Of a DNA stretch of 64,000 nucleotides, positions 40,446 to 63,713 are shown in pieces. The notes below the pieces were generated by a model. That model was not told where the DNA came from. It searched no databases and saw nothing but the letters and a program-made list of their open reading frames with translations. Positions within the stretch are counted from its first letter, which is position 1. Each line of letters opens with the position of its first letter. Source of the stretch: Candidatus Marinacidobacterales bacterium. GTDB lineage: Bacteria; Acidobacteriota; Vicinamibacteria; Marinacidobacterales; DATDRI01. The stretch spans positions 672,001 through 736,000 of the forward strand of contig OZ245365.1 of NCBI GenBank assembly GCA_965226495.1, written 5' to 3'. The position numbers and the translations under genes were made by a program.

Positions 40446-40459
40446 ATCGATCCTATGTT

Positions 40460-44946: not shown

Positions 44947-45115
44947 TCCTTGACACTGCCAGGTCGACTGAAATTATAGCCCAAAGGGCTTTGAGTCGCC
45001 AAGGATAGACCGGCCAAGCTCGCACTCGTCGAGCTTTCATTCGACCGGGGCGAATATGCTAACCTGAGGGGGTTCTAGTGCAAGTCTCGTCGAGAAGAAC
45101 AAAACCCGGAGGTGA

Positions 45116-45574: not shown

Positions 45575-45599
45575 GCACTAGGCACCGCCAACGGATCCG

Positions 45600-46523
45600 A
45601 TGAAGGTTTTGGTGACGGGTGCCGGCGGCTTGCTAGGCAGGGCCTCGGTGAGCCTCGCCTCCCAAGAACATGATTGTATCGGCTTGCCTCGGAAGGAACT
45701 CGATGTGACGGACCGGTCCTCGGTTCGGGAAGTTATCCATCGCTTTGAACCGGATGCGGTCATTCACTGCGCTGCCTATACCGACGTGGATGAGTCGGAG
45801 CGGAATCCGGATCAGGCCTTCGCCGTCAATGTGCAAGGCACCGAGTGGGTCGCGCGCGCGGCGCGGGAAGCCGACGCACAGATGGTCTACGTCAGTACGG
45901 ATTACGTCTTCGATGGTGAAAAGAAGACACCCTATACCGAAGGAGAAGCCGTGAACCCGCTATCCCAGTACGGCCGTTCTAAACTCGAAGGGGAGGCCAA
46001 AGTGCGGGAGGTCTGCGCCGATAATCACACCATTGTGCGAAGCGCGTGGCTTTACGGTCCAGGCAAGGGTTTCGTTGACTGGATGCTGGGGCGGCTCGAG
46101 ACGCCTGATGCGCCTGATGGGGCTGATGTGCCTGATGCGTCTGACGCTAGCAAAACGCTGCGTGTAGTCGACGATCACATCGGCAGCCCAACATGGATCT
46201 CAGATCTTGCCAAGGCGATCCTGCTGCTAGCGGAGGAACGATTGACCGGCACCTTCCACTACGTGAACAAGGGCGAGACCCATTGGCTAGGAGCGGCTTG
46301 GGTGATCGCGGATTACCTCGGCGTGGAGCGGTCACGGCTTTCAGGCACGGCGATGGCCGAGCTGAGTCGGCCAGCCCCGAGGCCGCACTATTCCGCCCTC
46401 GACGTTGACAAGTTCGAAAAAGCAACGGGCAGTCGCGTTTCCCGGTGGGATGAAGCTCTCAAAAATTATCTAGTCACCGCCCGCCCGCGAAAATTGAAGT
46501 TGAACTCCGAGCGTTTGTCCTAA
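45600..46523 (+). CDS. rmlD: dTDP-4-dehydrorhamnose reductase
   Basis: TGAGGLLG, CAAYTDVD, STDYVFDG, YGRSKLEGE, PAPRP. Confidence 0.93.
   Translation: MKVLVTGAGGLLGRASVSLASQEHDCIGLPRKELDVTDRSSVREVIHRFEPDAVIHCAAYTDVDESERNPDQAFAVNVQGTEWVARAAREADAQMVYVSTDYVFDGEKKTPYTEGEAVNPLSQYGRSKLEGEAKVREVCADNHTIVRSAWLYGPGKGFVDWMLGRLETPDAPDGADVPDASDASKTLRVVDDHIGSPTWISDLAKAILLLAEERLTGTFHYVNKGETHWLGAAWVIADYLGVERSRLSGTAMAELSRPAPRPHYSALDVDKFEKATGSRVSRWDEALKNYLVTARPRKLKLNSERLS
46104..46148 (+). repeat. Degenerate in-frame 9-nt tandem repeat x5 inside rmlD (PDA-PDG-ADV-PDA-SDA)
   Basis: cctgatgcg cctgatggg gctgatgtg cctgatgcg tctgacgct. Confidence 0.8.
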
Positions 46524-47710
46524 TCGACCACACTCGTCAGGAGCTCGCTGAGCTTACGGCCTCTTTCCTCCCACGAATAACCCTTGGCGTCTTCCGTCGC
46601 CTTCGCGGCGAGCCGGTGCGCCATTTCCGGATCGCCGGCCAACCTTTGTATGGCGGCGGCGAGGGCATCGGGGTCTCCGGGTGGAACGAGAAGCGCGTTC
46701 TCATCGTTCGTCAGAACCTCTCGCAACGATGGAAGGTCCGATGCCACGATGGCTCGACCGGATGCCATGGCTTCGAAGAGTTTGAGGGGCGATGTGAAAA
46801 CGCGGGCCGTCATCGAATCGAGCAACGGGATCACGAACACGTCGGCGCTCGTTCTCTCTTTGGCTACCTCGGGAGGTGGAAGAAAACCTCGAAATCGCAC
46901 GCGGTCGGTGAGGCCGAGTCGTTCCGCGAGGCGACGGACTCGATCGAGGTCGGGTTCCGGTGGAAGTCCACCGATCACCACCAACTCGACTCCAAGTATG
47001 TTTTTCATCGATTCGATGAGAATATCGACGCCCTTCCACGGGTAGAGCTGTCCGACGTAGTACACCTGAAGGGGTTTGTCGGCGGATCGTTCTCGGGGTG
47101 GTTGCGGTTTCGTCGGAACCTCGGTGCCATCCGGGATAACTCGCGCCGGAGCAAGCGGTGCATGGAGCTCGGAAAGAGACTTTAGAAGGCCATGGGTAAT
47201 TGCGACCACCGCAGCCGCTCCTTGGCAGACGCGGTGCTCACGTCGGCTGAGCCTCTTCAACTTGCGAGCACTCGGGGGGCGAGAGTCCGGACCTTGGTAG
47301 AGACGACGGGTTTCCTCTGAAAAGAGCGCGGCCGCAGTGTGGGCCTCGTAGATCACCAGACGTCGGTGGTACCACTTTGTGCGCAAGGCAAGATCGGCCA
47401 GGACGAGGTCTCGCGTGTACACCGCGTCGTACCGGCCGTTCGCCAAGAAAGGGATGGCTCTCGCCGCAAAGGTCAATTGTCCCCAAACCGACCCGGGAGC
47501 CGCGGTGGAAAGACGCCGCAGCTCGAGATTGGGATGCGGGGTGAGCCCGAAGAATTCCAGGCAGGCTTCATCGGATCGGGAATCACTCCGGCGCACCACG
47601 AGATCTACCTGCACCCCTTGTCGAGCCAGCGCGTGGCACGTTTGCACGGTCTGGATACCGTTGGCCCGCTCCATCGGAAAACGGATGTCGGCGAGGTAGA
47701 GCAGTCTCAT
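46520..47710 (-). CDS. Glycosyltransferase family 4
   Basis: RFPMERANGIQ, YVGQLYPWKGVD, TSPLKLFEAMASG..SDLPS. ATG 47710 overlaps the upstream stop (ATGA). Confidence 0.92.
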   Translation of the reverse strand: MRLLYLADIRFPMERANGIQTVQTCHALARQGVQVDLVVRRSDSRSDEACLEFFGLTPHPNLELRRLSTAAPGSVWGQLTFAARAIPFLANGRYDAVYTRDLVLADLALRTKWYHRRLVIYEAHTAAALFSEETRRLYQGPDSRPPSARKLKRLSRREHRVCQGAAAVVAITHGLLKSLSELHAPLAPARVIPDGTEVPTKPQPPRERSADKPLQVYYVGQLYPWKGVDILIESMKNILGVELVVIGGLPPEPDLDRVRRLAERLGLTDRVRFRGFLPPPEVAKERTSADVFVIPLLDSMTARVFTSPLKLFEAMASGRAIVASDLPSLREVLTNDENALLVPPGDPDALAAAIQRLAGDPEMAHRLAAKATEDAKGYSWEERGRKLSELLTSVVD

Positions 47711-49860
47711 TGGATGTAGCCTAATGCCCGGAGTGTGTCTTGCATCTCTCGATCCAGCTCCACTTGATTGCGAGCCGACCCCAACGGGAGGTGCCACACC
47801 CGAGCCAGCTCATCCTCCCGGTGAAGGAGGTCGTCTATCTCAGAAAGAGAAACCTGGAGCTCTTTCGGGTTTGCGTCGAAGGGGAACGCGATTGTCTCAA
47901 CACGCTCCGAGCCCAATCTCGCTCTCACCGTTTCGACCGTATGGCCGTCGCGCACAAGGGCGAAGCGAACCGGCGAACCTCCGGTCCTCGTCTGGATGAC
48001 GAGGTGTCGTCTTCTATCGTCGGCGGTGAAGGTGAGCGTCAATTTCTTGCGCTTCGAATCCACGTCGAAGAGGTCCCCGGTAACGATGGGAAACCGGAAC
48101 GCGTTTATGATTTCGACTTCCGACTCAGCATGAACCACAACGCGGGTGCCCGCTTTGTCGCCTCGAATAGAAAAGTGGAGGCCGTGCTGTCCGAGCTGGA
48201 CGAAACGCTCGAGCTCAGCAACGAGCTCGCGCGCCTGGGGCGGAACCGAAGGCAGTAGGTTCTTCCGCTCGGCGCGGTCCTTCTTGACGTCGAACAGATA
48301 CTCTTTTGGCGTCGGGACGAGCTCCCGGATATATTTGTGATCTTCATCGTAAACGGCGTAGCTCACGAACTTCGGGGCCACCAGCTCGGCAAGGAGCCGC
48401 CTTTCGCTCGTCTCGCCCCCTTCGAGTAACGGCGCGATGCTGCGGCCCTGAAAGACCGAGGGAACCGGCAACCCAGCTAGCTCCAGCAGGCTGGGAGCCA
48501 AGTCGATGTTCCCGACCAGCGAGGGTATCCGCCTGCCCGCCTTCTCGGAATGCGGCAATTTCAGAATACCGGGAATATGCAACGCTTCGCGGAAGAGAGT
48601 CTTGCCGTGCCGCGTGAAGTCATGTTCGCCAAATTCTTCGCCGTGATCGGCGGTCACGAGCAGTAGGGTCTCATCGTACAGCTCGAGTGCCTTCAAGGCC
48701 TCGACCAGCCTCCCGATCTCGCGGTCATTGTAGGCGAGCTCGTTGTCGTAGAGCTCCCGGTCCCGAGTTAGTCCCTCTTCAGCAGTCTTCACAAAAATTT
48801 CATCGAAGGGAGGTCGAGGTCGATAGCCGAAGTGGAGATCGAGGGAGTGCAGATACAAGAAGAAGCTCCGGCCACGATTTTCCTCGAGCCACGGGAGGAC
48901 CCCGTTGGTAATGTCGGCCGCGTCACTCTCGAGGGCATTGATGTGTTGCCCTGCGGAGCGCGCCTTGAAAGTCCGAAGATCCACCCACCGGTCGAATCCC
49001 TGGTTGAAAAAGAAAACGCGGGGCTTGATGACCGGATTGGCTACCCAGGCCGCGGTCGTATATCCGGACGCCCGGAATGCTTCGGCGAGGGTCAAGCGTT
49101 CGTAGGGCAGTGCGTCGTCGATGGTGCGCGCTTGGTGGTACATCGGAAGTAGTGAAGTGAACAGGCAGCCGGTGGACGGCTTGGTCCAAGGGGCACACGA
49201 CATGAGCTCCTCGAGGACGACGCCGTCCTCGGCTAGCGCGTCGAGTGTTGGAGTTGCGGGGAGCGGGTAGCCGTAGGCGCCGACGTGGTCGGCTCGAAGA
49301 CAGTCGACCACGTAGACGAGAACGTTGGGTCTTTTCGCCTCCGCCCGCGACGCGACGCCCACGACCTCGGGGTTGCCTAGAATCACCATCGCTTGTGGAC
49401 CGTCAACCGAGAGCTCGAGCTCGAGACTCCGTCCGGCGAAGCGGCTGAGGTCGATGCGACGCTCGACCCAATCTCTCTCTTCTTGCCACACTTCTTGCCA
49501 AATCTCTTGATTGACGACTTCGCCATCCACGACCGTGAGACGGATCTCGACCGGGACCTCCGGCTTCCGCACCGCGAGCCCGAAGCGAAGCTCGCCGCCA
49601 CGAGGAACGTCGCTTCGAAAAAACAACTTCGACGGACTCTCGAGAACCAATGACGGTCGGCGATCGCCATGGATCTCCGCATCGTGTACCTCAAAGGGTG
49701 AGTTGCTGCGCACGACGGCGTTTCGGAGCGAGCCCGGGCGCTGTTCGTCCATCTCGCTCACATCCAGCAGCCGTTGGTACGTCACGAGCCTCTCCGGTGC
49801 TCGCGCGCAATTCGAGACCAAGATGGCAGCAAGGATTGCAAGGAGTCGGCTGAGGGTCAT
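47707..49860 (-). CDS. Sulfatase-fold (alkaline phosphatase superfamily) lipoprotein with an N-terminal beta-sandwich
   Basis: Lipobox LVSN-C, RPNVLVYVVDCLRADH, APWTKPS, TADHGEEF.EH, tail TLRALGYIQ. ATG 49860. Confidence 0.88.
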   Translation of the reverse strand: MTLSRLLAILAAILVSNCARAPERLVTYQRLLDVSEMDEQRPGSLRNAVVRSNSPFEVHDAEIHGDRRPSLVLESPSKLFFRSDVPRGGELRFGLAVRKPEVPVEIRLTVVDGEVVNQEIWQEVWQEERDWVERRIDLSRFAGRSLELELSVDGPQAMVILGNPEVVGVASRAEAKRPNVLVYVVDCLRADHVGAYGYPLPATPTLDALAEDGVVLEELMSCAPWTKPSTGCLFTSLLPMYHQARTIDDALPYERLTLAEAFRASGYTTAAWVANPVIKPRVFFFNQGFDRWVDLRTFKARSAGQHINALESDAADITNGVLPWLEENRGRSFFLYLHSLDLHFGYRPRPPFDEIFVKTAEEGLTRDRELYDNELAYNDREIGRLVEALKALELYDETLLLVTADHGEEFGEHDFTRHGKTLFREALHIPGILKLPHSEKAGRRIPSLVGNIDLAPSLLELAGLPVPSVFQGRSIAPLLEGGETSERRLLAELVAPKFVSYAVYDEDHKYIRELVPTPKEYLFDVKKDRAERKNLLPSVPPQARELVAELERFVQLGQHGLHFSIRGDKAGTRVVVHAESEVEIINAFRFPIVTGDLFDVDSKRKKLTLTFTADDRRRHLVIQTRTGGSPVRFALVRDGHTVETVRARLGSERVETIAFPFDANPKELQVSLSEIDDLLHREDELARVWHLPLGSARNQVELDREMQDTLRALGYIQ

Positions 49861-52800
49861 GAACCGTTCTCGCGATGCTCGCAAGTCTCGACCAGGACGT
49901 GGTCTTCGAGATCGAGTCGCTTCAGCTCTCGCTCCAGCAGAGTTCGTTGACGCTGGACGAAATCGCTCTCCGCGGGGTCGAGGACTAGAAAGGTACCTCT
50001 TCGGTAGAGTGTTCGTGCCAGCGACAGCATTCTCGCGCTGAAGTCCTGCCGGTCTGAGGCAAAGTGGATCTCGTCGTAACCGTCTTCGATGGCCGCGGTT
50101 CTCATGGTGAGCAGAATCATCAAGCGGTCGTCGGCACCTCCCGACAGTAAGCCTGTCAGGTCGGACGTCCTCTCCGGCATGACGAAGCATACCTTGCTCG
50201 GTTGCCGAGCTCGCGGTTCGAAGACCAAGGGGTTCCCCCAGGATACGGTGCCATGAGTTCCCGGCTTCACCTGCAGAAGGAGCTTCTTCGCTTCCGCGGG
50301 CACCGGCGCTTCCAACGCCGACCACCGCTTGCTGCGTCGGGCTGATCTCAGATCGGCGAGGGGAATTGGGTCGGTACCCATGCCGTCGATGGCGACACGA
50401 GCCTCCACCACGCTAGATCGTGCGGTAGCGAAGGCTCGCACGATCCGGTTGGAGGAACTATCGATGGGCCAGGCTGCCTCCGAGTCTGGCGTCACGTCGA
50501 CCGCCTCGACGGCGAGGGGACCCATCCGAAGAGAGCCGGCACTGGTGTGAGGAACGAAACGCTCCGCAACTCGCAGCTGACCGCAACCCTCGGGGTCTAT
50601 GACTTCTCTTGCGCTCCGCCAACCGAGTAGTCCAATCAGTGGCGCTCCCACGCTCGCCGCTACGAGGACGGCGGTGAGCGATCGTTCGGAGAGCTGGGTC
50701 CGTGAAAGCCAGATGACTAAGACGACAACTAACAGCGCGAGTCCGAAGATTCGCCATCCCCAGGTGTAAGACGCCGGTAGGTAGAAGAGCTCGACCCGGT
50801 GTGATCCGGCGGGCAAAGGGACCGCCCGGAAGTAGAGATTGGCCTCGAGGATGGTCGCCGCCTTGCCGTCGACCCGCGCGTGCCAGCCAGGGTCGAAGCT
50901 TTCCGACATCACGAGGTAAGAAGGCTTCGCCGATCGCGTTTCGACGACGATGTGCTCTGCGCGATATTCGACGATTTCCGCGAGGGGTGACGCGTCGATG
51001 TCAGCAGGCTCGGCGCGCATCCCTGCCGGTTCCGGGAAGTAGCAGGCCGGTTCAGTGCTCAGTAGAACGGTACGCTCCGGGCGCAGCTTGGGATCGAGGA
51101 GCCTCGCGTTGATACCTCGTTCCCCCGGAAGGACCATCGCTCGTTCTGCTAACCAGGCACGCGGCATTCGCGATTGATAAAGGAAGAGACGTACTTCGTC
51201 GTCGTAGACGAGCTCGAGGTGCACCGGGTCTGGGTTCGGCCATCCTGCGGGCAGGGCGAAGTATTTGATGTTCCAGTTGCGCAACAGGTGCGTGGGGCGA
51301 AAGGAAGAGAGCCATGCCCAGTTACCCGAAGCGTCTTTGACTTCCAGCAACGACTCGCCGGTGGAGCCGCGCGCGTACCGGCGTATGCGATCGACGTAGC
51401 TCCCTAGGTTCTTTGGCAGCAAGGAGTGGTAGGCACCCACATCCTGCACCTGGTAGGCGCCGAGGGTATTGGGCCAAAAGGGAGTGTGGTAGTTCCCGAG
51501 TAAAGTGGCGACACGAAACGTGTCGGGATCATTCCGGAGAAACTCGATCGCCGGAAACTCCGGAAAAGGTGGGTAGATGTCGGTATCGACCCGAGGGTTG
51601 AAAGCGCGAGCGTAGGAAAAGAGATCGACGAGGATGACGGCGCCCACCATGGCGGCGAATGTCGTCGCCGCAATTTTCTGTCGAACCTTGAGCTCCATCG
51701 CGAGCAGCGCAAAGCCGAGGAGCGCCAAGCCGAAGGGCAGACGGAAGACAGTGAGAACGTCATCCCGGCCGGAAAACCAGCCGGTAGCCGCCGCCGCCAC
51801 GCCCAACCCAAGCAAGAGAAGTGCGAGCACACGCTCCCACCGCATACGACTTTCCAAACTTACCGAAAATCCGATGCCCGCGAGGAGCGCCAGGCCGAAC
51901 GACGCCAGGGCAACGTGCGTCTGTAGGTAGCGCAGCCGCTCGACACCCGGAACGAGCGAGTGCAGCAGTGTGAACAGCGGACTGCCGGTCGCCAGCCCGA
52001 TTCCTACGACGACGGTTGCAAGAAGCGCGATGGAAGGACCTCGTGGAATACGGCGAAAGGCGGCGGGGACGAAGATGAGAGGCAGCAGACCGATGTAAAG
52101 TTGGCTCCTTTGCAGCTCCGGCGAAAAAGCGGTGAGAAAAACTTGAGAGCCCAGCCCCGTTGCGGCGAGCTCGGTTGCGCTCAGCACGGCACGGTTCGCG
52201 CGGCTCAGGAACTCCAAGGAAGGAAATAGGAACGGGGCGGCCAAAGAGGCTCCGAGCACGACCGCCCCCGCAGCGAGAGAGGCACGGCGAAGTGATGTCG
52301 CGAAGTTCGATAGAGAAATGAGACGAGTGATCCCGTAGATCGTGGCTCCGAGAAAATTGATAAAGATGTCCGGATAGTGACCGGCGAGTAATTGAAACGC
52401 CACCGCAACGGCAAGACCGACGTACGCGCGAGGCCGGCCGGTGGTCACCAGGTCTTCGACGAACGTCAGAAGAAGAGGGAACCAAACGAGGGAGGGCAAG
52501 ATGAACGAAATCTCGGCGCGGTGCGTGATGCTGGGGGTGAAACCGTAAACGATGGCGCCCAGGATCGAACCGGTGAGGCTCAACCCGAGCCGGCGCAGGA
52601 AGATAAAAGCGAAAAGCTGTGCCAGGAAAAGATGGAGCAGGATTTCAATGTTGTGGGCAAGCTCGGTATCGAGGACGGCGTAAATCCAAAACGGCGGATA
52701 GAGCATGCGGCTGAAACCGGCAGCTAGATGGGGAACCCCTCCTCCCGCGTAGGGGTTCCAAAGGGCAATGCGGCCTTCCTTCGCGGCGCGGGCCGAAACG

Positions 52801-53006
52801 ACGTCGAGCGCGTAGCCGTCGAGGATCGCGTCCTTGATGCGTGAGTTCACGACCGGATGGTCGGGGGTGAGTTGTCGCCATGGTTCGAGATCTTGGTGGA
52901 GCCAATCGGTGGGTAAGAGGAGATCGCCCCGCAACACCTCCCAAAAACAAAGCCAGGGCAGGGCGGCGAGGAGAGCCACCCCGAGGATCGTTTTTCGGTT
53001 CCCCAT
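49857..53006 (-). CDS. YfhO-family GT-C membrane protein with a C-terminal extension
   Basis: IALWNPYAGGGVP..LYPP, LAGHY, YIGLLPL, PRAWL, SESFDPGWHARVDG..ANLYFRAVPLPAGSHRVELFYLP. Confidence 0.88.
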   Translation of the reverse strand: MGNRKTILGVALLAALPWLCFWEVLRGDLLLPTDWLHQDLEPWRQLTPDHPVVNSRIKDAILDGYALDVVSARAAKEGRIALWNPYAGGGVPHLAAGFSRMLYPPFWIYAVLDTELAHNIEILLHLFLAQLFAFIFLRRLGLSLTGSILGAIVYGFTPSITHRAEISFILPSLVWFPLLLTFVEDLVTTGRPRAYVGLAVAVAFQLLAGHYPDIFINFLGATIYGITRLISLSNFATSLRRASLAAGAVVLGASLAAPFLFPSLEFLSRANRAVLSATELAATGLGSQVFLTAFSPELQRSQLYIGLLPLIFVPAAFRRIPRGPSIALLATVVVGIGLATGSPLFTLLHSLVPGVERLRYLQTHVALASFGLALLAGIGFSVSLESRMRWERVLALLLLGLGVAAAATGWFSGRDDVLTVFRLPFGLALLGFALLAMELKVRQKIAATTFAAMVGAVILVDLFSYARAFNPRVDTDIYPPFPEFPAIEFLRNDPDTFRVATLLGNYHTPFWPNTLGAYQVQDVGAYHSLLPKNLGSYVDRIRRYARGSTGESLLEVKDASGNWAWLSSFRPTHLLRNWNIKYFALPAGWPNPDPVHLELVYDDEVRLFLYQSRMPRAWLAERAMVLPGERGINARLLDPKLRPERTVLLSTEPACYFPEPAGMRAEPADIDASPLAEIVEYRAEHIVVETRSAKPSYLVMSESFDPGWHARVDGKAATILEANLYFRAVPLPAGSHRVELFYLPASYTWGWRIFGLALLVVVLVIWLSRTQLSERSLTAVLVAASVGAPLIGLLGWRSAREVIDPEGCGQLRVAERFVPHTSAGSLRMGPLAVEAVDVTPDSEAAWPIDSSSNRIVRAFATARSSVVEARVAIDGMGTDPIPLADLRSARRSKRWSALEAPVPAEAKKLLLQVKPGTHGTVSWGNPLVFEPRARQPSKVCFVMPERTSDLTGLLSGGADDRLMILLTMRTAAIEDGYDEIHFASDRQDFSARMLSLARTLYRRGTFLVLDPAESDFVQRQRTLLERELKRLDLEDHVLVETCEHRENGS

Positions 53007-53099
53007 GTGGAGTCTACGCTAATGAAATGGCTGATTGAGGTCAACAGTTCGACAGGAGTGGTTGCCTTTGAATCAAGGAGACTTTATCCTGCCGGATTG

Positions 53100-54344
53100 A
53101 TGCTTTCGCCGCACTCACGCCGAGCGAGGTCGAGTCATTCCGTTAATCGATTCGCTATTTCGTGCATGCTCGCCAGCTCCATCATGTCGTGTATCGCAGA
53201 GAGGGAGCCCGACCCGACGGCCGAGGACGTTGCTGAGAACTTACAGTCCCTCTCCTACACCGCCTGGAGCCCGCTCGAGCACGCAGGTAGAGCCGGTGTC
53301 GTAGGCCATGACCGGAGCCGGGCTTATCCAGCTCTCAACCTTTTCAATTCTCTCCCCCGGGCCAGAGCGACACTCATGGACATGGAGGGGAAGACGCTGC
53401 ATGAGTGGTCCCTTGACGCCGCAAAAGAATGGGCACACGTCATGCTGCGGCCAAACGGTGATCTCCTGGTGCTTAGTGAAATCCCCCGGAAGCTCCTTCG
53501 ACTGGATTGGGAGTCCAACGTCATCTGGGAAGAGGAGATCGAGGCCCACCACGACATCGACATCGCCGACAACGGTGACCTTTATGTGTTGACCGGGAAG
53601 GATGAGCGGGTCGATCACGATGGAGTCGAAATCCCGATTAGAAACGAGTTCATCTTGATCCTGACGCCGGATGGGCGAAAGAAGCGTCGCCTTTCATTCT
53701 TACCTATTTTCCGACATCTCCTCGACTTCGACCAGATAAAAAGGTTCGTAGAAACGAACGGCGAGGTGGGCGAGGGGATGCGTTTCGAAGGGGATGCGGT
53801 CGACATTTTTCATGTCAATACTCTCTCCATCATCGACCGGACACACAACGATTTTCTCCGGAAGGGCTTCGTATTGGTAGCCGCCCGGAGCCTCAACCGG
53901 GTCGCGGTCATAGATCTGGAGGCAGAAGAGCTCGTTTGGAGCTGGGGAGAGAACGATCTCGACTGGCCTCACCAGCCCGTGCTCCTAGGGAACGGGAACC
54001 TACTCATCTTCGACAACGGGACCCACCGCAAATACTCCCGGGTGATCGAGCTCGATCCGACGACGGCCGAGATCGTCTGGGAGTACAAGGGCGATCCGCC
54101 GAAGTCTTTTTACACCGCGTTGAGGGGAGGCATCCAGAAGTTAACCAACGGAAACATCCTGGTCACTGAATCACGTCGGGGTCGTGCTTTCGAAATCACG
54201 CACGAGGGAATGATCGTTTGGGATTTCTACAACCCGGATATCTATGAAAGGCCGAAAAGGCGGAGCAAGAGAGCTACTATCTATTGCATGACCAGAATCG
54301 CGCCCGATTTTCTGAACCCCCGTTTGTGGGCCCAGGTTCAGTGA
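53100..54344 (+). CDS. Arylsulfotransferase (ASST)-family beta-propeller lipoprotein
   Basis: Lipobox IMS-C, HHDID, FHVN, WPHQP, IFDNG..SRVIELDP..IVWEY, Q.L.NGNILVTES..GRAFEIT.EG.IVWDFYNP. Start uncertain. Confidence 0.82.
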   Translation: MLSPHSRRARSSHSVNRFAISCMLASSIMSCIAEREPDPTAEDVAENLQSLSYTAWSPLEHAGRAGVVGHDRSRAYPALNLFNSLPRARATLMDMEGKTLHEWSLDAAKEWAHVMLRPNGDLLVLSEIPRKLLRLDWESNVIWEEEIEAHHDIDIADNGDLYVLTGKDERVDHDGVEIPIRNEFILILTPDGRKKRRLSFLPIFRHLLDFDQIKRFVETNGEVGEGMRFEGDAVDIFHVNTLSIIDRTHNDFLRKGFVLVAARSLNRVAVIDLEAEELVWSWGENDLDWPHQPVLLGNGNLLIFDNGTHRKYSRVIELDPTTAEIVWEYKGDPPKSFYTALRGGIQKLTNGNILVTESRRGRAFEITHEGMIVWDFYNPDIYERPKRRSKRATIYCMTRIAPDFLNPRLWAQVQ

Positions 54345-54346
54345 GC

Positions 54347-55717
54347 ATGAACGTCCGGTTCCGCTGGGTTCTCTTGATGGCTCAAGTGTTCCTAGGATGC
54401 GCCGGGCATCCTCCGGAAGCCCTAGAGGCTCCAAACGCTCCCGATGGCGTTCTGTTGATTGTGGTCGATGCCTTGCGTCCCGATCACCTCGGTGTGTACG
54501 GGTACGAGCGTGCGACCTCACCCCATCTAGACAAGTGGGCGGAGCAAGCGGCGGTGTTCGAGCGGGCCTTTACGACGTCACCTTGGACGCTACCCTCGTT
54601 CGGATCGATGTTGACCGGAGAATTGCCAGCTCGACATGCTGCCGGTAGCCGGGTGCGGGAGTCCAACTGGACTGTCTCCACCCGTTTGAACGACGCGCTC
54701 CCCACGCTACCTGAGACTCTCGCCGCGTCGGGGTTCGTTACTGGCGCGATCATCAACAATCCTTGGCTTCCTCGCGGTGTCGGATTGGAAAGAGGGTTCG
54801 ATACATACGACTACCAAAGTCCGGATGAACAGAATCATCGGCGCGCCGCAGAGGTCGTAGATCTCTCCTTGAAATGGATTGCGGAGAGCTCAGAGAGTCC
54901 ATTCTTTTTCATGATGCACATCTTGGATCCTCACATGACCTACGATGCGCCCGCACCCGTCCGTGGGCGTTTCACGTCTGGTATGCCCGGTGGGTTCGAG
55001 CTACCCGTGATCGAGCCGCGAAAGATTCGGAAGCGGGCGCAATCCATTGCAGACGGTGAACGCCAGTTCATCACCGCTGCCTATGACGAGGAAATTGCCT
55101 ACGTGGACCAAGAGCTCGGGCGTTTGTTCACGGCGCTCGAAGAAGTGGGTCTCTTCGAACGTTTGGTGATCGTTTTGACTTCCGACCACGGCGAAGAGCT
55201 TTTCGATCATGGAGACTTCGAGCATGGGCACGGAATGTATCAAGAGCTCCTGCGGATCCCGCTTCTGGTCTGGGGACCCGATGTGCTGCCCGGCCGGCAC
55301 ACCGCACCAGTCTCCTTGGTCGATCTGTACGACACGATCCTTGAGTCGGTCGGGGCGACTCCCACGGGGGGGACCGCGGGGCAGTCTCTCTGGCCGGCGG
55401 TCACGAAGGGCGATGCGATCCCCGAGCGGCCGATCCTGGCCGAAGCGACGCTCTACGGGCCGGAGCGCCGCGCCATCATCCGATGGCCGTTGAAGTTGAC
55501 ACTCGAGACGGGTGTCGGCCGCCGCCGGCTCTACAACCTCGAAACCGATCCCGGAGAGCAAGCCGATTTGGCGCCCGAGGAAGAGCGTGCGGTCGAGTAT
55601 TTGTCGAATGAGCTCCGTAGCACGATGCAGGCGGCACGACAGGGAGTTGAGGCGGAGGCACTGCCCTTGGACGAGGAGATGTTGAGGGAGCTGCGCTCAC
55701 TGGGCTATGTCAACTGA
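54347..55717 (+). CDS. Sulfatase-fold lipoprotein
   Basis: Lipobox FLG-C, VVDALRPDH, SPWTLPS, DPHMTY, TSDHGEELFDHGDFEHG, tail ELRSLGYVN. Confidence 0.9.
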   Translation: MNVRFRWVLLMAQVFLGCAGHPPEALEAPNAPDGVLLIVVDALRPDHLGVYGYERATSPHLDKWAEQAAVFERAFTTSPWTLPSFGSMLTGELPARHAAGSRVRESNWTVSTRLNDALPTLPETLAASGFVTGAIINNPWLPRGVGLERGFDTYDYQSPDEQNHRRAAEVVDLSLKWIAESSESPFFFMMHILDPHMTYDAPAPVRGRFTSGMPGGFELPVIEPRKIRKRAQSIADGERQFITAAYDEEIAYVDQELGRLFTALEEVGLFERLVIVLTSDHGEELFDHGDFEHGHGMYQELLRIPLLVWGPDVLPGRHTAPVSLVDLYDTILESVGATPTGGTAGQSLWPAVTKGDAIPERPILAEATLYGPERRAIIRWPLKLTLETGVGRRRLYNLETDPGEQADLAPEEERAVEYLSNELRSTMQAARQGVEAEALPLDEEMLRELRSLGYVN

Positions 55718-55727
55718 CACCCTCGAG

Positions 55728-56924
55728 TTATTCATGCTCGGGAAGCAGACCCGGCTGAGAAAAATCCGCAGCTATTCTCGTCATGCGGTAGATCGAGGCC
55801 CTCTTGTCCCGAACTTCGTTCACGTCAGGGTTGTAGAATTCCCAAGCAACCTCTCCCTCGCGCGTGATCTCAAAAGCGTGGCCTTTCGTCGATTCGGTAA
55901 TCAAGATATTACCGTTCGGTAGCTCCTGAACTCCCCCCATCATTACCGAGAAGAAAGATTCGGGAGGCTCGGCCGTGTACTGCCAAACGATCTTGCCGGC
56001 CGATGGATTCAGTTCAATAACGCGAGAATACTGGCGGTGCGTGCCGTTGTCGAAAATCAAGATGTTCCCGTTCTCTAGAAGGACTGGTTGGTGGGGCCAA
56101 TCGAGGTCTCCCTCACCCCAAGTCCAAATGAGTTTTTCTCTTTCGACATCGAGCACGCCGATGAGATTCAGGCTTCGGGCTGCAAAGAGTACGAAGCCTT
56201 CTTGGAAGAATTCATTGACCGTACGGTCGATAATGGAAAGTGTGTTGATGTGAAAAACGTCGACGAAATCTCCTTCGAAACGGAACCCGTAGTCTATCTC
56301 GCCACCGGTTGCAATGAACTTTTGAAGTTTGTCCATGTCGAGGAGGTGGCTCAGCAGAGGGAGAAAGGAAATCGTGTGGGTGATTTGCCCTTCCGGCGAA
56401 AGAACGAGAATGCTGTGGTTCCGAACTGGAATATCTAGACCATTGTAGTTCGTATACTCCTCCGACGCGGACAGCACGTAGATCTCGCCTTCGTTGGAGA
56501 TGTCCATGTCGTGGTGAACGTAAACTTCCTGGGTCCACAACATGCTGGAATTCCAATCCAATCGAATTAGTTTGCGGGGCAGTTCGTTTAGCACCAGAAG
56601 GTCACCGTTCGGAAGCGGTTTCACGTGCTCCCACTTCTTGCCCGTGTCCAGCGACCAAGAATGCAGCTCCTTTCCGTCCATATCAATTAGGGCCGCTCGG
56701 GTCGCAACGAGAGAGTTGAACAGGTTGAGCCCAGGGTACGCGCGCTGGGGACGATGGACGACGACACCCTCCTTTTCCTTGTGCTCAATCGGACTCCACG
56801 ACGTGTAGGGAAGTGCCCTGAGCTTCCTTGCGCTCTCCTCGGGAGTCTCATCCTTGACCTTGGTCTCGATGCTGCAGGCGGCGTTCAGGCAGGCGACGCT
56901 CAAAAGGAGCAGAATCCGTTTCAT
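55728..56924 (-). CDS. Arylsulfotransferase (ASST)-family lipoprotein, paralog of 53100..54344
   Basis: Lipobox NAA-C, HHDMD, FHIN, WPHQP, IFDNG, QELPNGNILITES. ATG 56924. Confidence 0.82.
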   Translation of the reverse strand: MKRILLLLSVACLNAACSIETKVKDETPEESARKLRALPYTSWSPIEHKEKEGVVVHRPQRAYPGLNLFNSLVATRAALIDMDGKELHSWSLDTGKKWEHVKPLPNGDLLVLNELPRKLIRLDWNSSMLWTQEVYVHHDMDISNEGEIYVLSASEEYTNYNGLDIPVRNHSILVLSPEGQITHTISFLPLLSHLLDMDKLQKFIATGGEIDYGFRFEGDFVDVFHINTLSIIDRTVNEFFQEGFVLFAARSLNLIGVLDVEREKLIWTWGEGDLDWPHQPVLLENGNILIFDNGTHRQYSRVIELNPSAGKIVWQYTAEPPESFFSVMMGGVQELPNGNILITESTKGHAFEITREGEVAWEFYNPDVNEVRDKRASIYRMTRIAADFSQPGLLPEHE

Positions 56925-56938
56925 CGTTAAGCTGGCCT

Positions 56939-58405
56939 CTATTGGATGTAGCCCAGGGAGCGCAGCTCTTCCCGGACGCGCGGCGGAAGGTCGACGCTTT
57001 CTGCTCCTTCCGGCGTGGCGCGGACCGAAAATGCTTTCGATTCTCGTTGGAGCAAGGCCGACCTGAGTTCGTCGAACTTTTGGCGCGCTCCCGGGCTCAA
57101 AGTTCGTTCGTCTTTCCACTGGAGCGGCCTATGCTCACCGGGGTCGTTACCTAGATCGAACAAGAGCTCGGTCTCTGCGTCACGGTTCACGATGTACTTG
57201 AAGTGAGGGGTGCGCAGCGAGGTCCAGTCACCGCTCCGTCGCAAGCTCGAGATCGCCCCGGCGCGCTGGAGAGAAGCTTTACCCTTGAGGGTGTCTCCCA
57301 AGTTTCTGCCCCCGACGCCGTTCAACGGGTCGCCCGGTTCTTCGATGCCTGCGAAGGCAAGTAGAGTCGGCAGGATGTCGAGATGGCTCACCTGCTCCGA
57401 AATGCGGACTCCTGCTTGTACTTCTCCCGGTAGCCTTACGATCATCGGGATCTGGATAACTTCATCGAAAAGCGTGCGGTAGTGACCCTTGTCGCCATGC
57501 TCGAAGAACTCCACACCGTGGTCAGAAGTCACCACGATCAGCGTGTTCTCACGCAAGCCGTTGCGGTCCAGCGCGTCGATCAAATAGCCGATTTCGCGAT
57601 CGGTATAGAGGATCTCAGCATCGTACAGGGCGACTAAGTGGTCTAGGTCTCTCGGATCCATGTTGGCGTTGATTGCTTCGTTCTCTTGAAAGTACTCACC
57701 GGTCATCGTTCCCTGATAGTCAGCGTCGAATTTGCGCCAAAGCTCTTCGGGGGCCATGTAGTCGAAATGCACATCGAAGTAATGCAGGAAGAGAAAGAAA
57801 CGCTGATCGGACACTGTACCTAGAAACTCGATCGCCTTTTCGGTGATGAGGTGGCTGGTGACGATGCGGTGCGACATGAAATTCGTCTTCTTGACTTTGC
57901 TGTCGGTTCCTGGAATGGTGGGATCGAAATCCACCTCGTCGTAGACCGTCTTGCCCATCGCGCTCTCGTAGCTATCGAACCCGCGGCCGAAGCCGAAGAT
58001 GGGATGCAGGTAAGGCCCGCTGAACACACCGTAGGTGCGATAGCCTCGCTCGCTCAGGATTTGAGCAAGGGTCGAGTAGTCGGCGCTGAGCGTCGAGCCC
58101 GAGAAGTACTCGACACCGTGGGTCTGGGCTGGCAACCCGGTAAGCATCGTCATGTGCGTCGGCAAGGTCCAGGAGCTTTCCGCAATCACATTCTCGAAGA
58201 GCGTTCCTTCCTGAGCCAGGCGATCCAATGTGGGCGTCGTTTCTCTCGGATAGTCATAGGAGTGGACGTGATCGGCTCGCAATGAGTCGATCGAGATGAG
58301 AAGAATGTTGACCGGCTGTTGCTCCGGGCGCCCGGCGCAAGACACGGTGAGCCCGGTGAACGTGATGAGCCCGATCGCTAGAAAGCTTCTAGGAAATATC
58401 GTCAC
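56939..58405 (-). CDS. Sulfatase-fold lipoprotein
   Basis: Lipobox TVS-C, ISIDSLRADH, SSWTLPTH, FDVHFDY, TSDHGVEFFEHGDKGH, tail ELRSLGYIQ. Confidence 0.9.
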   Translation of the reverse strand: MTIFPRSFLAIGLITFTGLTVSCAGRPEQQPVNILLISIDSLRADHVHSYDYPRETTPTLDRLAQEGTLFENVIAESSWTLPTHMTMLTGLPAQTHGVEYFSGSTLSADYSTLAQILSERGYRTYGVFSGPYLHPIFGFGRGFDSYESAMGKTVYDEVDFDPTIPGTDSKVKKTNFMSHRIVTSHLITEKAIEFLGTVSDQRFFLFLHYFDVHFDYMAPEELWRKFDADYQGTMTGEYFQENEAINANMDPRDLDHLVALYDAEILYTDREIGYLIDALDRNGLRENTLIVVTSDHGVEFFEHGDKGHYRTLFDEVIQIPMIVRLPGEVQAGVRISEQVSHLDILPTLLAFAGIEEPGDPLNGVGGRNLGDTLKGKASLQRAGAISSLRRSGDWTSLRTPHFKYIVNRDAETELLFDLGNDPGEHRPLQWKDERTLSPGARQKFDELRSALLQRESKAFSVRATPEGAESVDLPPRVREELRSLGYIQ

Positions 58406-59820
58406 TGCACATAACCAAGGGATTCGAGGCGTTCGATCTCCTCTGGAGAGAGGACGATGTTCGGGCCACTGACGGATTGTCGTTCAGAGAAACGTTCGAG
58501 CGCTTCCTGAAGCCTGGCGACTTCTACCGAGCGTTTCTGGCCATCCCAGAGATTCTCTCGTTCTTCGGGATCGTTTTCCAAGTTGTACAGCTCATATCGG
58601 CCGGTATCGAGGTTGTAGATGAGCTTGCGCTGCTCCCACTCCACCATGATCTTGCGATCCTTCGTCCCCCAGGCGAAGCTGCCCTCACTGAAGATCGGTC
58701 GCCCGCTACTGCCTTTCGCGGCGAGTACCAGCAGGTCCTCCCCTTGGAACGGGTTGGTGTCGACCTGGGCCAGTCGGGCAAAGGTGTGGGCCAGGCTGGC
58801 GGGCTCTACCGCCTCCGAGTAACGCCGTCCCTGGAGCTCACGATCGATGTCTCCCCATATGATCAGCGGGACGTGAACGAGCTCGTCATAGACGTCTCTC
58901 CCGTGGCCGAAACGGCCTCGCTCCATGAAGTACTCGCCGTGATCGGCGGTCAAGGCAGCGATCGTCGGTCGCCGCAACGGTAAGTTTCCAATAGCTCGGA
59001 AGAGGCGGCCGATGGACTCGTCTGTAAACGCGATCTCCTCGTCATACACCGCGGTGACCGTTGTCAGCGAGAAAGGATCGGGGACGGTGTCGTCCCCCAA
59101 GGCTTCGGCGGCTCTTCGGAGCTCGCCGGCGCGGAGGCGATCGGGTACCTGCTTCGGCGGGCCATGGGCGAAGCGAAACTCCGGATGACGCACATAGGTT
59201 AGATGGGGATCGAAATAGTGTACCCATAGGAAGAAGGGCTCTTTCGCTTTCCTGCGGAGATACTTCATCGCCGTCCTCGTCACCTCGGGCGAAGTGACCG
59301 CCTCGTGGCCCTGGACCAGTGTGTCGTCGAAGGTGGCGAAGCCTTGATCGAAGTTGTAGCGCCGACTGACGAAGGTGTGCGTTACCACGGCGGTGGTGTC
59401 GTAGCCAACGTCCTGGAGTGACTCCGCGAGGGTCGTCAACTCGTTTCTTAGAGGGAGCTGGGCGCCGGTTGCCCCGTGCTCTCGGGGATAAAGAGAGGTG
59501 TGGATCGACGCGATACTGGGAAGGGTCCATGGAGCCGACGAGATCGCGCGCTCGAAAAGGACTCCCGATGCCGCGAGGCGATCGATGCGGGGCGAGGACG
59601 GACGATAGTGACCGTAGCAGCTAAGATGATCGGCTCGCAGCGTATCGACGGTGACGAGAACGAGATTGGGTTGCGGCCTGGGCACGTCGTCGGGGCCACC
59701 GCGACCATCGGTACAGGCACCGGCAGCAGAGAGGAAGCCCGAAAGTGCTGCAACGAGCTGCAAGAGTTCCCGCCGGGAGAGGGAAGCTGAAAATGGAGGC
59801 TCGGGGTCGGGTGCGATCAT
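58402..59820 (-). CDS. Sulfatase-fold lipoprotein with a twin-arginine signal
   Basis: SRRELLQ..AAGA-C, VTVDTLRADH, APWTLPS, FDPHLTY, TADHGEYF, tail RLESLGYVQ. ATG 59820. Confidence 0.9.
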   Translation of the reverse strand: MIAPDPEPPFSASLSRRELLQLVAALSGFLSAAGACTDGRGGPDDVPRPQPNLVLVTVDTLRADHLSCYGHYRPSSPRIDRLAASGVLFERAISSAPWTLPSIASIHTSLYPREHGATGAQLPLRNELTTLAESLQDVGYDTTAVVTHTFVSRRYNFDQGFATFDDTLVQGHEAVTSPEVTRTAMKYLRRKAKEPFFLWVHYFDPHLTYVRHPEFRFAHGPPKQVPDRLRAGELRRAAEALGDDTVPDPFSLTTVTAVYDEEIAFTDESIGRLFRAIGNLPLRRPTIAALTADHGEYFMERGRFGHGRDVYDELVHVPLIIWGDIDRELQGRRYSEAVEPASLAHTFARLAQVDTNPFQGEDLLVLAAKGSSGRPIFSEGSFAWGTKDRKIMVEWEQRKLIYNLDTGRYELYNLENDPEERENLWDGQKRSVEVARLQEALERFSERQSVSGPNIVLSPEEIERLESLGYVQ

Positions 59821-59912
59821 GCTTCTTCGGTGTGATGTCGGTTTCTTGCGTCGTCTCCTACCGAGGAACCAGAATAGTCCGGGCCAGGATTGAAACGCAA
59901 GCCTTGCGGTCT

Positions 59913-62033
59913 TTACGGGTTCGGGCCGGTTTCCCTTCCACTTCTGGCGAGGAGCCGCTCCACGTGTTCTTTTTCTTCGCGAGCGCGTTCCATTTGTTCC
60001 CAGAAGATGGCTCGACGTTCGGGGCCGAGACGCTCGAGCCACTTCTGATTGGTGGCCTTGTCCCGATTGATCATTTCCGCGATTCGGCCCCAATGAGCCC
60101 AATCCTCGATGATGCGTTGATCAGTGGGGGCCATTCGGGCGGCCGAGAGAAGAACAAGCGCGACCGAGAGCCATGCACCGGGGCGCGTCCACTGGCGAGA
60201 GAGGAAAGCGAAGAGCGCCGCCGCTGCCATGCCGCAGGCTACCGCCGGAAGATAACCCAAACGGATGTAGTCGGGGTAACGGATGTTGAACAGAGGAATG
60301 ACGGTGACGATGAGCCAGAACGTCGCGAAAACGAAAAGCGATCTCTCTCGGGCCCGACCGCGGATTAATAGCATGAGCCCAACCGTCAAGAAAAATGCAC
60401 TGCCAGCGTACAAATACAGTAGAGACTCGGCGCCTAGAAACTCGAAATCATAGGACGGGTAATAGGTCGGGATGAACGCAAAGCTCAGCAGTCGCAGCAG
60501 AGAATGCCAAAACTGCATCAAGGACCCCTCGGAAGCGACGGTCTTGATGGTGACCGCACTCAGTTTCTCGTGGAAGAGCGCGACCCAACAGACGGCATAG
60601 ATGACACTCACCCCGACGAGGAGCACCAGCATCCGGAGACTCTTGCGAGTCAGGCGCCGACGGCAAGCGGCAAAACCGAGAGCCACCGCGGGAAACGTGA
60701 TGGCAACCTCCTTGGATGCGAGCGCTCCGGCGTAGCCAACTCCAATCGGGACGAGCCCCGATGTGCTGCCCGGACGCAAGTAGCGCGCCACCGCCATAAG
60801 GGCCAGGAGGAAGAACGTGGTGGCCAGGACGTCGGTGCGCTCGCTGATCCAAGCCAAACCCGTAGCGGCCATGGGATGAAGGGCGAAGAATGTCGCTCCG
60901 GCGAGCGCCCATTTCCATCGCACCCAGCGGGCTAGGAACCACGCAACCAAAGTGGAGTTCAGAATGTGGAGAAGGATGTTGGTCAGGTGGAAGCCTGGCG
61001 GGCGCAAGCCGTAGAGATGATAGTCGACCTGAAAGAGCGTCACGATGAGCGGGCGGTAATAGTCGTTCCCGATGCCGGTCCAATTCCAAGTGCCGTAAAA
61101 GGTGAAGAGCCACTCACCGAGCGTAATGGGGCGAGCAAAATCGAAATCGTCCCAGAAAAAACCGCTTTGCAGGGCCGGTGCATAGACGGTGAAGATACTT
61201 CCGGCCAGCGTCGTGGCGACCGCCCATCTCGGGAGCCTGCGTCCGCGCGCCGAAAGGCGAGAGGTCAGCAAGGGTGGCGCCACGATCAACCCGAGCACGA
61301 AAACACGGAGGAACGGGACACTCCATGCGGGGAGGGCGTCGAAAACGTAGGGCCTCGCCGAGTGGAGACCGATCCACATCGCTGCGGTCATGGCGGCAAG
61401 AGACCAGCAAAAACGGATCGGCGCCACGACGCGGGCCAAGCCGAGGATGAACCAACACACTCCGGCGACGGCCACCGCCAGCCCTATCCAGAGTAAGCGA
61501 TGAGTGGGGACCTCGAGCCGCACCGTTCTCAGCTGCAAGCCCAAGACCCTCCGATCGCCCGATGCTGCGTCGTGCGCCGACGGCTGAAAAGGTTCGCTGT
61601 CGAGAAGCAAATCTAGATGAGCGCCTTCTTCCGGTCCGGTCCCGATCTTTACCGTTTGCCAATCCGCCTCCATGTCTCGATTCCAAATCTCTCGCTCATC
61701 GGTCTCGATGACCAAGCGAGGGGGCGGGAAATTGGGCGGGCGCCATCCTCTGACATCGAGCTCTAGCCGCACGCCGCGAGAGCGATCGATGCCGCGAAAA
61801 TGGACGACGGCGCGGGGCCGACTCCATCGAAACCCGACCGTCCCATTCGTCTCTGAGGGGTAGAAGCCCTCATGACCCCAGAGGTCGTTCGGATGGAGGG
61901 TGACACTCGGTGTACCCGCCATCGTCCCGATCACTACGGCGGCGACCAGGAGAAAAGAGGCAGGAAGAGGGGATGTGACCAGTCGTGGCAAACGAAGCTT
62001 CCTCAGCGGCCTCTTAGCGTGCCCTTCCGGCAA
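59913..62033 (-). CDS. GT-C membrane glycosyltransferase (PMT/TMTC-like) with a periplasmic beta-sandwich
   Basis: [40 protein letters not shown]-terminal GFYPSE..FRWS module. Confidence 0.8.
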
Positions 62034-62098
62034 AGCGAAGTCAACAGTTGTTCAGAACTGCTAGGCCGTCGAGGCCGTGCGCTATACTCGCCCGTCGC

Positions 62099-62862
62099 AT
62101 GATGAAAGAGCTGGTCGCCATCCGATGGCTTGCTTGCGCCGCCGCCCTGGCGCTCTTTTTCGAGAGCGGCTGTGGGGAGGGTGAGCCTCCGAGCTCTTCG
62201 CGGTACTTTTTCGTGGACCACGCGGAAGAAGTAGGACGTGAGTTGCCGCTGCGTAAGGGGTTGCAGCTAGCGACGTCGATTACTATGGCGGACGAGACGC
62301 GCCGGAGCTTGGTGCCTCCGATCCCTTCCCGCCTCGCGTTCGATGTCGAGGTCCCGAACGATCCGGTGCTGCGATTCGGAATCGGCGTGTTCACGTTCGA
62401 CGCGCCCGGCCTGGGGGCAGCGGTGGAGTTCCATCTGTATCTCGACGCGGGTGGCAACCCGGAGGAAGTTTTCGCAGGCGTTGTGGGGCGAGCCCGGCCC
62501 AATCTTTGGTTCGACCAGGAAGTGGATCTATCGACATGGCAAGGCTCGAGCGTACGTTTGATCCTCGAAACGAAGCAAAGGGGATCGGGTGAGGCTTCGG
62601 GAGAGCGTCCAGCGCTTGCGCTTTGGGGCAATCCGGTTCTTTCGAGTCGGAGCGAACGTTCCGAGCGTCCGAACGTCATCCTGATATCCATCGACTGTCT
62701 GCGCTCCGATCATCTCGGGAGCTACGGTTACTCCCGGAACACGACCCCGAGTATCGATGCCTTGGCCGGGGACGGCGTTCTGTTCGAGACGGCGGTGAGC
62801 ACGTCGTCGTGGACGAGCTTTTGCGGGAGAGGTTGGAGGCACTCGGATACCTCGACAACTGA
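62099..62862 (+). pseudogene. Sulfatase-fold lipoprotein with most of the catalytic domain deleted
   Basis: Lipobox ESG-C, beta-sandwich, [20 protein letters not shown], then an out-of-frame jump directly to the family C-terminus [16 protein letters not shown] (stop 62860-62862). Confidence 0.8.
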
Positions 62863-62890
62863 GTGTCGAGGGGTTCGCCTCCAGGTTGGC

Positions 62891-63706: not shown

Positions 63707-63713
63707 CTCGCGT

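Follow-up and report, generated by a model that had tools for sequence, protein, structure and literature searches.

Arylsulfotransferases (ASSTs) such as Cpz4 of Streptomyces (9kf4/9kf6) and AssT of E. coli CFT073 (3elq/3ets) are beta-propeller enzymes that work without PAPS (3'-phosphoadenosine 5'-phosphosulfate) and have a His/His-Asn/Arg/His site. In AssT the sulfo-His is His436 (PMC13426309; bioRxiv 10.64898/2026.10.08.757636), and the portion of that work available to us counts tyrosyl peptides among ASST acceptors, reports that Cpz4 sulfates a sugar hydroxyl, and describes natural acceptors as mostly unknown, with that of Cpz4 as the only physiological one named (PMC13426309). Proteins of family PF00884 that bear threonine (Thr) as their nucleophile present a second gap: an excerpted account states that Thr cannot give formylglycine, calls such proteins uncharacterised, notes that they swell sulfatase counts, and advises against naming them sulfatases without data (PMC5066984). 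A precedent comes from Halobacterium salinarum, in which gene deletion and heterologous expression showed that Agl30 and Agl31 (VNG1056C/VNG1057C), alkaline-phosphatase-superfamily proteins annotated as sulfatase-like and encoded in a glycosylation cluster, are needed for N-glycan sulfation (PMC11980604, available in part). Here we describe a block of genes at 46520..62862 of a 64,000-nt stretch of DNA (the window) from Candidatus Marinacidobacterales bacterium (contig OZ245365.1, positions 672,001 to 736,000 of the forward strand), in which ASSTs, Thr-type sulfatase-fold proteins, and glycosyltransferases (GTs) are encoded side by side. The block is real and conserved but modular, and combines Cpz4-like ASSTs with Agl30/31-like and EptA-like enzymes. 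Because the sulfate-transfer and Thr-type enzymes adjoin sugar-adding enzymes, the cluster most likely decorates a cell-surface sugar polymer: with a probability that we put at roughly 55 per cent, it is a tailoring block for envelope glycans outside the cytoplasm, in which the ASSTs add sulfate and the Thr-type enzymes add sulfate or phospho-groups.

Coordinates are those of the window unless prefixed with G000 (genome coordinates); genes were called from a listing of open reading frames (ORFs) and from Pfam matches, and L and P labels denote retrieved loci and retrieved proteins, respectively. The nine intact genes (46520-62033) encode a GT4 glycosyltransferase, the Thr-type protein S1, YfhO, the ASST A1, S2, the ASST A2, S3, S4, and a PMT_2-like GT-C membrane protein. 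A preliminary description of the window had counted two ASST genes and five sulfatase-fold genes; both ASSTs are present with their catalytic residues kept, and S1-S4 are intact, whereas S5 is a pseudogene.

A1 (53100..54344, + strand, start uncertain; PF05935/PF14269 above cut-off) has an N-terminal LQSLSY helix and the catalytic elements HHD, HxN, R, and PHQ. A2 (55728..56924, - strand), a predicted lipoprotein, has an LRALPY helix (Y40) and H138/H225/N227/R250/H278, and both proteins keep every catalytic residue (His, His-x-Asn, Arg, and the sulfo-accepting His). The best Foldseek matches of the AlphaFold model of A2 (predicted local distance difference test [pLDDT] 87) are Cpz4 (9kf6/9kf4; E 1e-16, TMq 0.65) and then AssT (3ets, 0.63); only A2 was modelled, and the beta-propeller assignment covers A1 via its 57 per cent identity to A2. 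In an hhalign alignment to AssT of CFT073 (probability 93.6), precursor residues H279, H383, N385, R401, and H463 fall on conserved residues of the window proteins, and H463 equals sulfo-His436 if a signal of 27 residues is assumed. Across the clade, the His/Asn positions are conserved in 70-71 of 71 aligned sequences and the Arg in 52 of 71. Judged from these residues, A1 and A2 are very probably active as ASSTs, and an envelope glycoconjugate is slightly favoured as their acceptor. Their clade differs from Cpz4 and AssT in its low identity to them (13-19 per cent), smaller size (about 400 aa), membrane tethering, and N-terminal LxxL(G/P)Y helix, as well as in context, which is envelope-glycan genes here and antibiotic or dsbL/dsbI genes there. 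A hydrophobic segment precedes the propeller in 126 of the 144 top ASST representatives with a scorable N-terminus. The clade is large, with 4,047 clusters (50 per cent identity) at E 1e-30, a count that may take in more distant ASSTs. Records from Altiarchaeota, Gemmatimonadota, Caldithrix, and other sources include tandem arrays of three to four ASST genes as well as double-ASST proteins (L062, L091, L096, L126; P0001, P0106, P0107).

The Thr-type proteins are all predicted lipoproteins. S1 (47707..49860, - strand) joins an NPCBM-like N-domain to a Thr-type sulfatase-fold domain with D186, T226 in WTKPS, H338/H343, and D405/H406/H418, and ends in LRALGY. The corresponding nucleophiles and C-terminal motifs are T81 in WTLPS and LRSLGY in S2 (54347..55717, + strand), T80 in WTLPT and LRSLGY in S3 (56939..58405, - strand), and T99 in WTLPS and LESLGY in S4 (58402..59820, - strand), which has a twin-arginine-like signal. 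Thr-type proteins score above the PF00884 cut-off, and the S3 model (pLDDT 72) is closest to sulfatases of SulfAtlas family S1 (Z 34-38.5; 6hr5: VIA Z 38.5, root-mean-square deviation [rmsd] 2.7, 357 aligned), followed by PbgA/YejM (Z 33.6, rmsd 2.5), LtaP (28), and EptA/MCR (26-27). Family S1 sulfatases and phosphonate monoester hydrolases thus provide the best whole-domain match. They differ from the window proteins at the active site, in which Thr replaces Cys/Ser, no C/S-x-P-x-R motif is found, and the signature Arg is absent. Sulfatases of this family carry a basic Lys after the DN/DH metal motif; where they would have it, at D+13, a His stands in 22 of 22 aligned sequences. The site instead aligns with that of EptA (hhalign probability 97.2), with D at E244, H-x4-H at H380/H385, and DH-x11-H at D455/H456/H468, positions conserved in 19-22 of the 22 sequences; hhalign set the Thr one residue off T282 of E. 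coli EptA, and the register was fixed by motif spacing. Since a family S1 fold is paired with an EptA-like His/Asp site, S1-S4 are, on sequence grounds, not formylglycine sulfatases.

EptA/MCR, LtaS/LtaP, and YejM/PbgA share with S1-S4 the Thr, H-x4-H, DH-x11-H, and an extracytoplasmic catalytic domain (Z 26-34). Unlike them, S1-S4 have a lipid anchor in place of a multi-pass domain, Asp for Glu as the first metal ligand, a sulfatase-type C-terminal subdomain, an LGY tail, and NCBIfam scores far below cut-off (EptA models at most 44 bits against 400-660; LtaS 23 against 970). Each has one signal segment and no N-terminal multi-pass domain; fusions with multiple transmembrane (TM) segments exist among their relatives. 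We consider S1-S4 probably transferases rather than hydrolases, with sulfate and a phospho-group about equally plausible as the group transferred. Scoring with hidden Markov models (HMMs) gives 32 Thr-type and 15 Cys-type ORFs for this genome, some of which are halves of split genes. Among language-model look-alikes of the N-domain of S1 and S5 are carbohydrate-binding modules of the NPCBM/GH98 type, a lead only (PF08305 on 22 per cent of one cluster), and a homologous domain was not detected in the C-terminal part of YfhO. NPCBM-like N-domains also occur on non-sulfatase proteins at G000 864736, 5383468, and 6269112, one of them a 4-TM protein and two presumably CotH-like lipoproteins, and at G000 780219-788541 (L002), where four tandem Thr-type paralogs with this domain lie beside a 1637-aa F5/8-Fn3 surface protein.

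Agl30 and Agl31 resemble S1-S4 in their superfamily, their location in a glycosylation cluster, and their LxxLGY C-terminus. This tail, proposed here as a marker, is known from primers alone: the reverse cloning primers given in the available part of PMC11980604 decode to C-termini HLEDLGYL and LEELGYT, a feature on which that part contains no remark that we found, and which names neither a donor nor a mechanism; the word PAPS is absent from its main text as available. The haloarchaeal proteins differ in being archaeal and in acting on a dolichol-linked glycan, whereas S1-S4 are lipoproteins predicted to be exported and are paired with ASSTs. Full-length plasmid matches to S3 are mainly haloarchaeal 'sulfatases', and four haloarchaeal proteins from GT clusters have a Thr or Ser nucleophile, three of them ending in LxxLGY. 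In a FastTree phylogeny covering 57 of 59 domains, with EptA as the root and weak backbone support, these four are interspersed with bacterial Thr-type sequences and stay out of the Cys clade (support 0.97). Exact scans of metagenome contigs with the Agl30/Agl31 primers gave 0 matches. The published precedent of Agl30/Agl31 lends weight to the sulfate reading, and their tail, together with the ASST link, moves the balance toward sulfate.

The remaining genes of the block are those expected to add sugars. The GT4 gene (46520..47710, - strand; PF00534/PF13692 above cut-off) has the same position in L084. YfhO, a GT-C-family membrane protein (49857..53006, - strand; about 11 hydrophobic segments), matches PF09586 at 78.9 bits against a cut-off of 28.5. 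Both companions thus stand as first described, but the PMT-like GT-C (59913..62033, - strand, start uncertain), with an N-terminal soluble domain and about 8 hydrophobic segments, stays below the PMT_2 (PF13231) cut-off (23.9 against 26.1 bits); we take its motifs to resemble those of TMTC-type mannosyltransferases. Genes overlap by 4 bases at GT4/S1, S1/YfhO, and S3/S4, and the remaining intergenic gaps are 2-93 bases. The tight spacing reported earlier is therefore present, but the block is split into several short units on both strands and is not one operon. Its GC content (0.55-0.62) resembles that of the rest of the window, and an Rfam scan of 44000-64000 gave no match. Lipoboxes, judged by eye and by regular expression, are plausible in S1 (VSNC), S2 (FLGC), S3 (TVSC), S4 (AGAC after an RR motif), S5 (ESGC), and A2, whose clear hydrophobic signal ends in NAAC, but not on every protein as first claimed: the signal and lipobox of A1 are weak (IMSC), and its L084 orthologue has VVSC. 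Export and lipid anchoring of the block proteins are predictions from these signals.

In the decoration that we propose, YfhO and the PMT-like GT-C would, by family membership, add sugars from lipid-linked donors at the outer face of the inner membrane. Lipid-anchored A1 and A2 would accept sulfate on a His from an aryl-sulfate donor and then transfer it to a glycan or glycoconjugate hydroxyl, much as Cpz4 sulfates a sugar. The Thr-type lipoproteins would coordinate a metal, go through a covalent Thr intermediate, and attach an anionic group to the same type of glycan, either sulfate as with Agl30/Agl31 or, with a slight preference, a phospho-substituent as with EptA/LtaS. The donor could be an aryl sulfate made from PAPS in the cytoplasm and then exported, given that an APS (adenosine 5'-phosphosulfate) kinase and a PAPS-dependent sulfotransferase are present in the genome; a Cpz8-to-Cpz4 relay is reportedly a model for such a route. 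The sulfotransferase lies at G000 759097-759750, 23 kb past the window, and the APS-kinase domain is in a 662-codon frame (G000 1509795-1513094) that presumably is a Sat-CysC fusion and is followed by what we take to be a CysQ-like gene. If the block sulfates an envelope glycan in this way, the gap in ASST substrates and the gap in Thr-bearing PF00884 proteins would join in one assayable pathway, Agl30/Agl31 chemistry would extend from haloarchaea to bacteria, and PAPS-free glycan sulfotransferases would be on offer.

The two unrelated folds share a short helix. In S1-S4 an acidic stretch leads into a terminal LxxLGY, and the related LQSLSY and LRALPY begin A1 and A2. All 71 aligned ASSTs carry the helix Tyr, which makes up one of their 13 invariant columns. 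Of 77 ASST ORFs, 68 have the motif ahead of the core, versus 4 per cent of shuffles, and seven of the nine misses still show PY; it also occurs in 130 of the 144 ASST representatives, which were selected by a profile that contains it. Within this genome, 29 of the 32 Thr-type paralogs but just 1 of the 15 Cys-type ones contain LxxLGY, so that, in contrast to S1-S4, 14 of the latter lack the tail. A stricter pattern gives 36 matches among 24,889 ORFs, nearly all of them Thr-type, NPP-like, or ASST. The motif varies in position among ASST proteins (N-terminus, internal loop, or C-terminus), occurs twice in the fusion P0011 and at the C-terminus of four ASST fusions, and is close to the end of 3 of 17 PAPS-dependent sulfotransferases. 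L003 (G000 821488-823074) holds an ASST of another clade with ELERLKALGY in a loop just before HxN, and a second ASST converges with it. Four NPP-like membrane-anchored proteins (G000 539020, 1578698, 3801047, and 6159646; PF01663 confirmed for three) end in LxxL/IGY and carry a Ser-type S-x-V/I-x-W-T-S/T-I-A-T-G motif, while ASST-PhoD fusions (P0010, P0012-P0014; Bacteroidota-labelled or unlabelled) have no LGY helix.

The minimal reading of the LxxL(G/P)Y helix is a conserved lid or an element for docking; it may also be a generic helix cap or lid. A bolder and improbable idea is a tyrosine sulfo-relay, in which the helix is a tethered phenol that carries sulfate. An ASST would load the helix Tyr, on its own arm or on that of a Thr-type partner, to sulfotyrosine; the resulting aryl sulfate would be an activated donor, with which the Thr enzyme would sulfate an extracytoplasmic envelope glycan, and no PAPS would have to be exported. 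Against this idea, structural models place the helix at low confidence (pLDDT 37-64), and the relay gives no account of the primary sulfate donor. If true, it would give much of a very large family mislabelled 'sulfatase' a sulfotransferase role, explain Agl30/Agl31, and supply a natural substrate for membrane-tethered ASSTs, and the shared Tyr makes for a cheap, one-residue test of mechanism. A literature search, mostly of open-access journals, returned no paper that ties ASSTs to Thr-type sulfatase-fold proteins or describes an LGY helix.

Related genomes conserve the cluster. L084 keeps the order GT4-S1-YfhO-ASST-S2-S3-S4-PMT-S5 (55-92 per cent identity per segment; YfhO 72-79, S2 86, and PMT-like 83 per cent), with one ASST only, A2 being absent from its block position. 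Partial order is found in L032 (S4-S3-ASST) and L033 (YfhO-S2-ASST; S2 67 per cent identical), and an ASST lies directly beside S2 or S3 in all three loci. The ASST profile is matched by 22 of 151 genomes of the class. In a class sample of 20 non-own ASST loci, taken after four weak ones were left out, a Thr-type gene is in the locus of six of 14 close-clade ASSTs and of none of six distant ones, compared with 8 per cent of random positions in this genome. Here, a GT or GT-C gene is found within 10 kb for 15 of 32 Thr-type and 3 of 15 Cys-type ORFs, versus 20 per cent of random positions. Among the 16 best long ASST relatives, six have an N-terminal domain of 7-10 hydrophobic segments (PMT_2 is above cut-off in P0007 and below it in P0015) and two have a Thr-type domain (P0009, P0011); among 58 long S3 relatives, PMT_2 is listed in six and tetratricopeptide repeats in 22. 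The GT-C models were seeded with P0003, P0006, P0007, P0015, and P0053, and circular matches to these were not counted. Neither was the grouping of S3 with GT-C-fused proteins (support 0.95), because those proteins were retrieved using S3 as the query.

Several results weigh against envelope-glycan decoration by a dedicated system. Of the 23 Thr-type paralogs outside the island, only 7 have a GT or GT-C gene within 10 kb, against the same 20 per cent background. Of 79 ASST loci across phyla, Thr-type genes are found in only 11, GT-C-like genes in 18, any GT in 30, and Cys-type genes in two (10, 13, and 21 for the first three among the 42 loci of at least 14 kb), in a survey that used custom models, had many short loci and no per-genome background, and overlaps the class sample; their neighbours, when clustered, are mostly shadow ORFs, GT2, ABC/Wzt, radical SAM, and kinases. 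No ASST domain is listed in the 58 long S3 relatives. Fusions are also rare in the top 150 ASST representatives, of which one matches the GT-C model and none the Thr model. An S3 orthologue in L150 (57 per cent identity) has no ASST or GT match within 10 kb. We reject a reading of the window as a split form of the P0053 fusion, since the PMT-like gene is not orthologous to the GT-C of P0053 (E 0.096). S1-family hydrolases are the nearer match to the overall fold (Z 34-38, against 26-28 for EptA/LtaS), and Agl31 is soluble and described as cytosolic, with Agl30 membrane-bound, in the part of PMC11980604 available. In sulfatase mutants, Ser/Thr sulfate adducts turn over poorly. Given such loose linkage, we conclude that ASSTs, Thr-type enzymes, and GTs form a recurrent association rather than a fixed system, a mix-and-match toolkit with no obligate operon. 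The tightly co-occurring system of the preliminary description finds no support in that form, and the neighbourhood comparison it called for upholds the gene order in L084, and partly in L032 and L033, but shows loose linkage across the 79 loci.

The same surveys bear on a different account, in which the Thr-type lipoproteins are phosphodiesterases or phospho-transferases independent of the ASSTs, and the ASSTs sulfate small phenols or another metabolite and sit here because the region gathers exported modifying enzymes. The active-site set matches that of EptA, NPP-like paralogs share the LxxLGY tail (five of nine NPP-model matches are strong, four of these with the tail), 68 of 79 ASST loci and all 17 PAPS-dependent sulfotransferase loci lack a Thr-type gene, and the Cpz4 acceptor is the only physiological one named, as noted above. 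Such independence sits poorly with the ASST-Thr fusions P0009 and P0011, with the ASSTs adjoining S2 or S3 in three other loci, with a near-invariant-Tyr helix common to two unrelated folds, and with Agl30/Agl31, which have the same tail and transfer sulfate. We regard it as rather unlikely.

S5 (62099..62862, + strand), a Thr-type lipoprotein pseudogene, raises the question of decay. Its family match ends directly after the nucleophile Thr (WT|SFCG), where ~1.09 kb found in the intact L084 orthologue is missing; two short stretches of similar sequence (GTCGTC.TGGACG) flank the break, and the last ~20 codons, including the LEALGY tail, are left out of frame. The deletion is real, since contigs from four of four runs, from four studies, cross the junction (one run may be the assembly source), which rules out an assembly artefact. 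An inversion that moved the 3' part elsewhere is also ruled out, as blastn returns only paralogs at 73-77 per cent. S5 is dispensable in this lineage, a further point against envelope-glycan decoration. It would suit a view in which there is no system, only paralogs of a much expanded family that have recently piled up in a glycan island and are partly decaying. The 32 Thr-type ORFs here, the 14-58 model matches in five relatives (counts that include Cys-type and split matches), the absence of A2 at its block position in L084, and the finding of S3 and ASST orthologues each in only three of seven other genomes of the family agree with such a pile-up. However, S1-S4 are only about 30 per cent identical to one another and are placed in different tree branches, and are therefore not recent duplicates; their orthologues in L084 stand in unchanged order, and there are GT-C-like fusions that are independent of one another. 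We consider a mere pile-up quite unlikely.

Least probable of all, and by our estimate very improbable, is sulfate-ester scavenging or detoxification, in which the ASSTs would shuttle sulfate between phenols and the Thr enzymes would hydrolyse esters without formylglycine. The fold is closest to family S1 sulfatases, an ASST is near a Cys sulfatase in L133, and, among the 16 best long ASST relatives, two are fused to canonical Cys sulfatases (P0005, P0016) and four to PhoD, which makes ASST fusions unspecific and also counts against glycan decoration. The window proteins, however, have other residues in place of the C/S-x-P-x-R motif and at the catalytic Lys position, Thr cannot yield formylglycine (PMC5066984, in its available part), and the genome has 15 separate Cys-type ORFs. 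The flanks hold GT2, GT4, GT-C, a Wzx-like flippase, and sugar-nucleotide enzymes, and the interval from G000 690 to 800 kb contains no TonB receptor, the closest among 20 matches being at 946 kb, in line with the earlier statement that the island has none. The earlier rejection of an S1-sulfatase scavenging locus is borne out by the intact-looking ASSTs, the EptA-type transferase-like site, the conserved cluster, and GT-C-like fusions in both families. What stands of the biosynthetic, glycan-modifying module first proposed is that it is not a scavenging locus; its tightness and a functional S5 do not stand.

The block lies in a glycan-biosynthesis region of about 100 kb, from about 30 kb of the window to G000 790 kb, which further holds GT2, GT4, membrane proteins, the Wzx-like flippase, methyltransferases, sugar-nucleotide enzymes, and five more Thr-type genes. 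Upstream of the block, 38721-46523 encodes an MGH1-like six-hairpin glycosidase and SGNH/GDSL-like, radical SAM/SPASM, and RmlC- and RmlD-like proteins. Within it, a multi-TM GT-C-like gene with no Pfam match (41818-43777, + strand) is split across two frames near 42.8 kb, which may be a sequencing error outside the read-checked region. The stretch occurs in part in seawater and marine-sediment runs.

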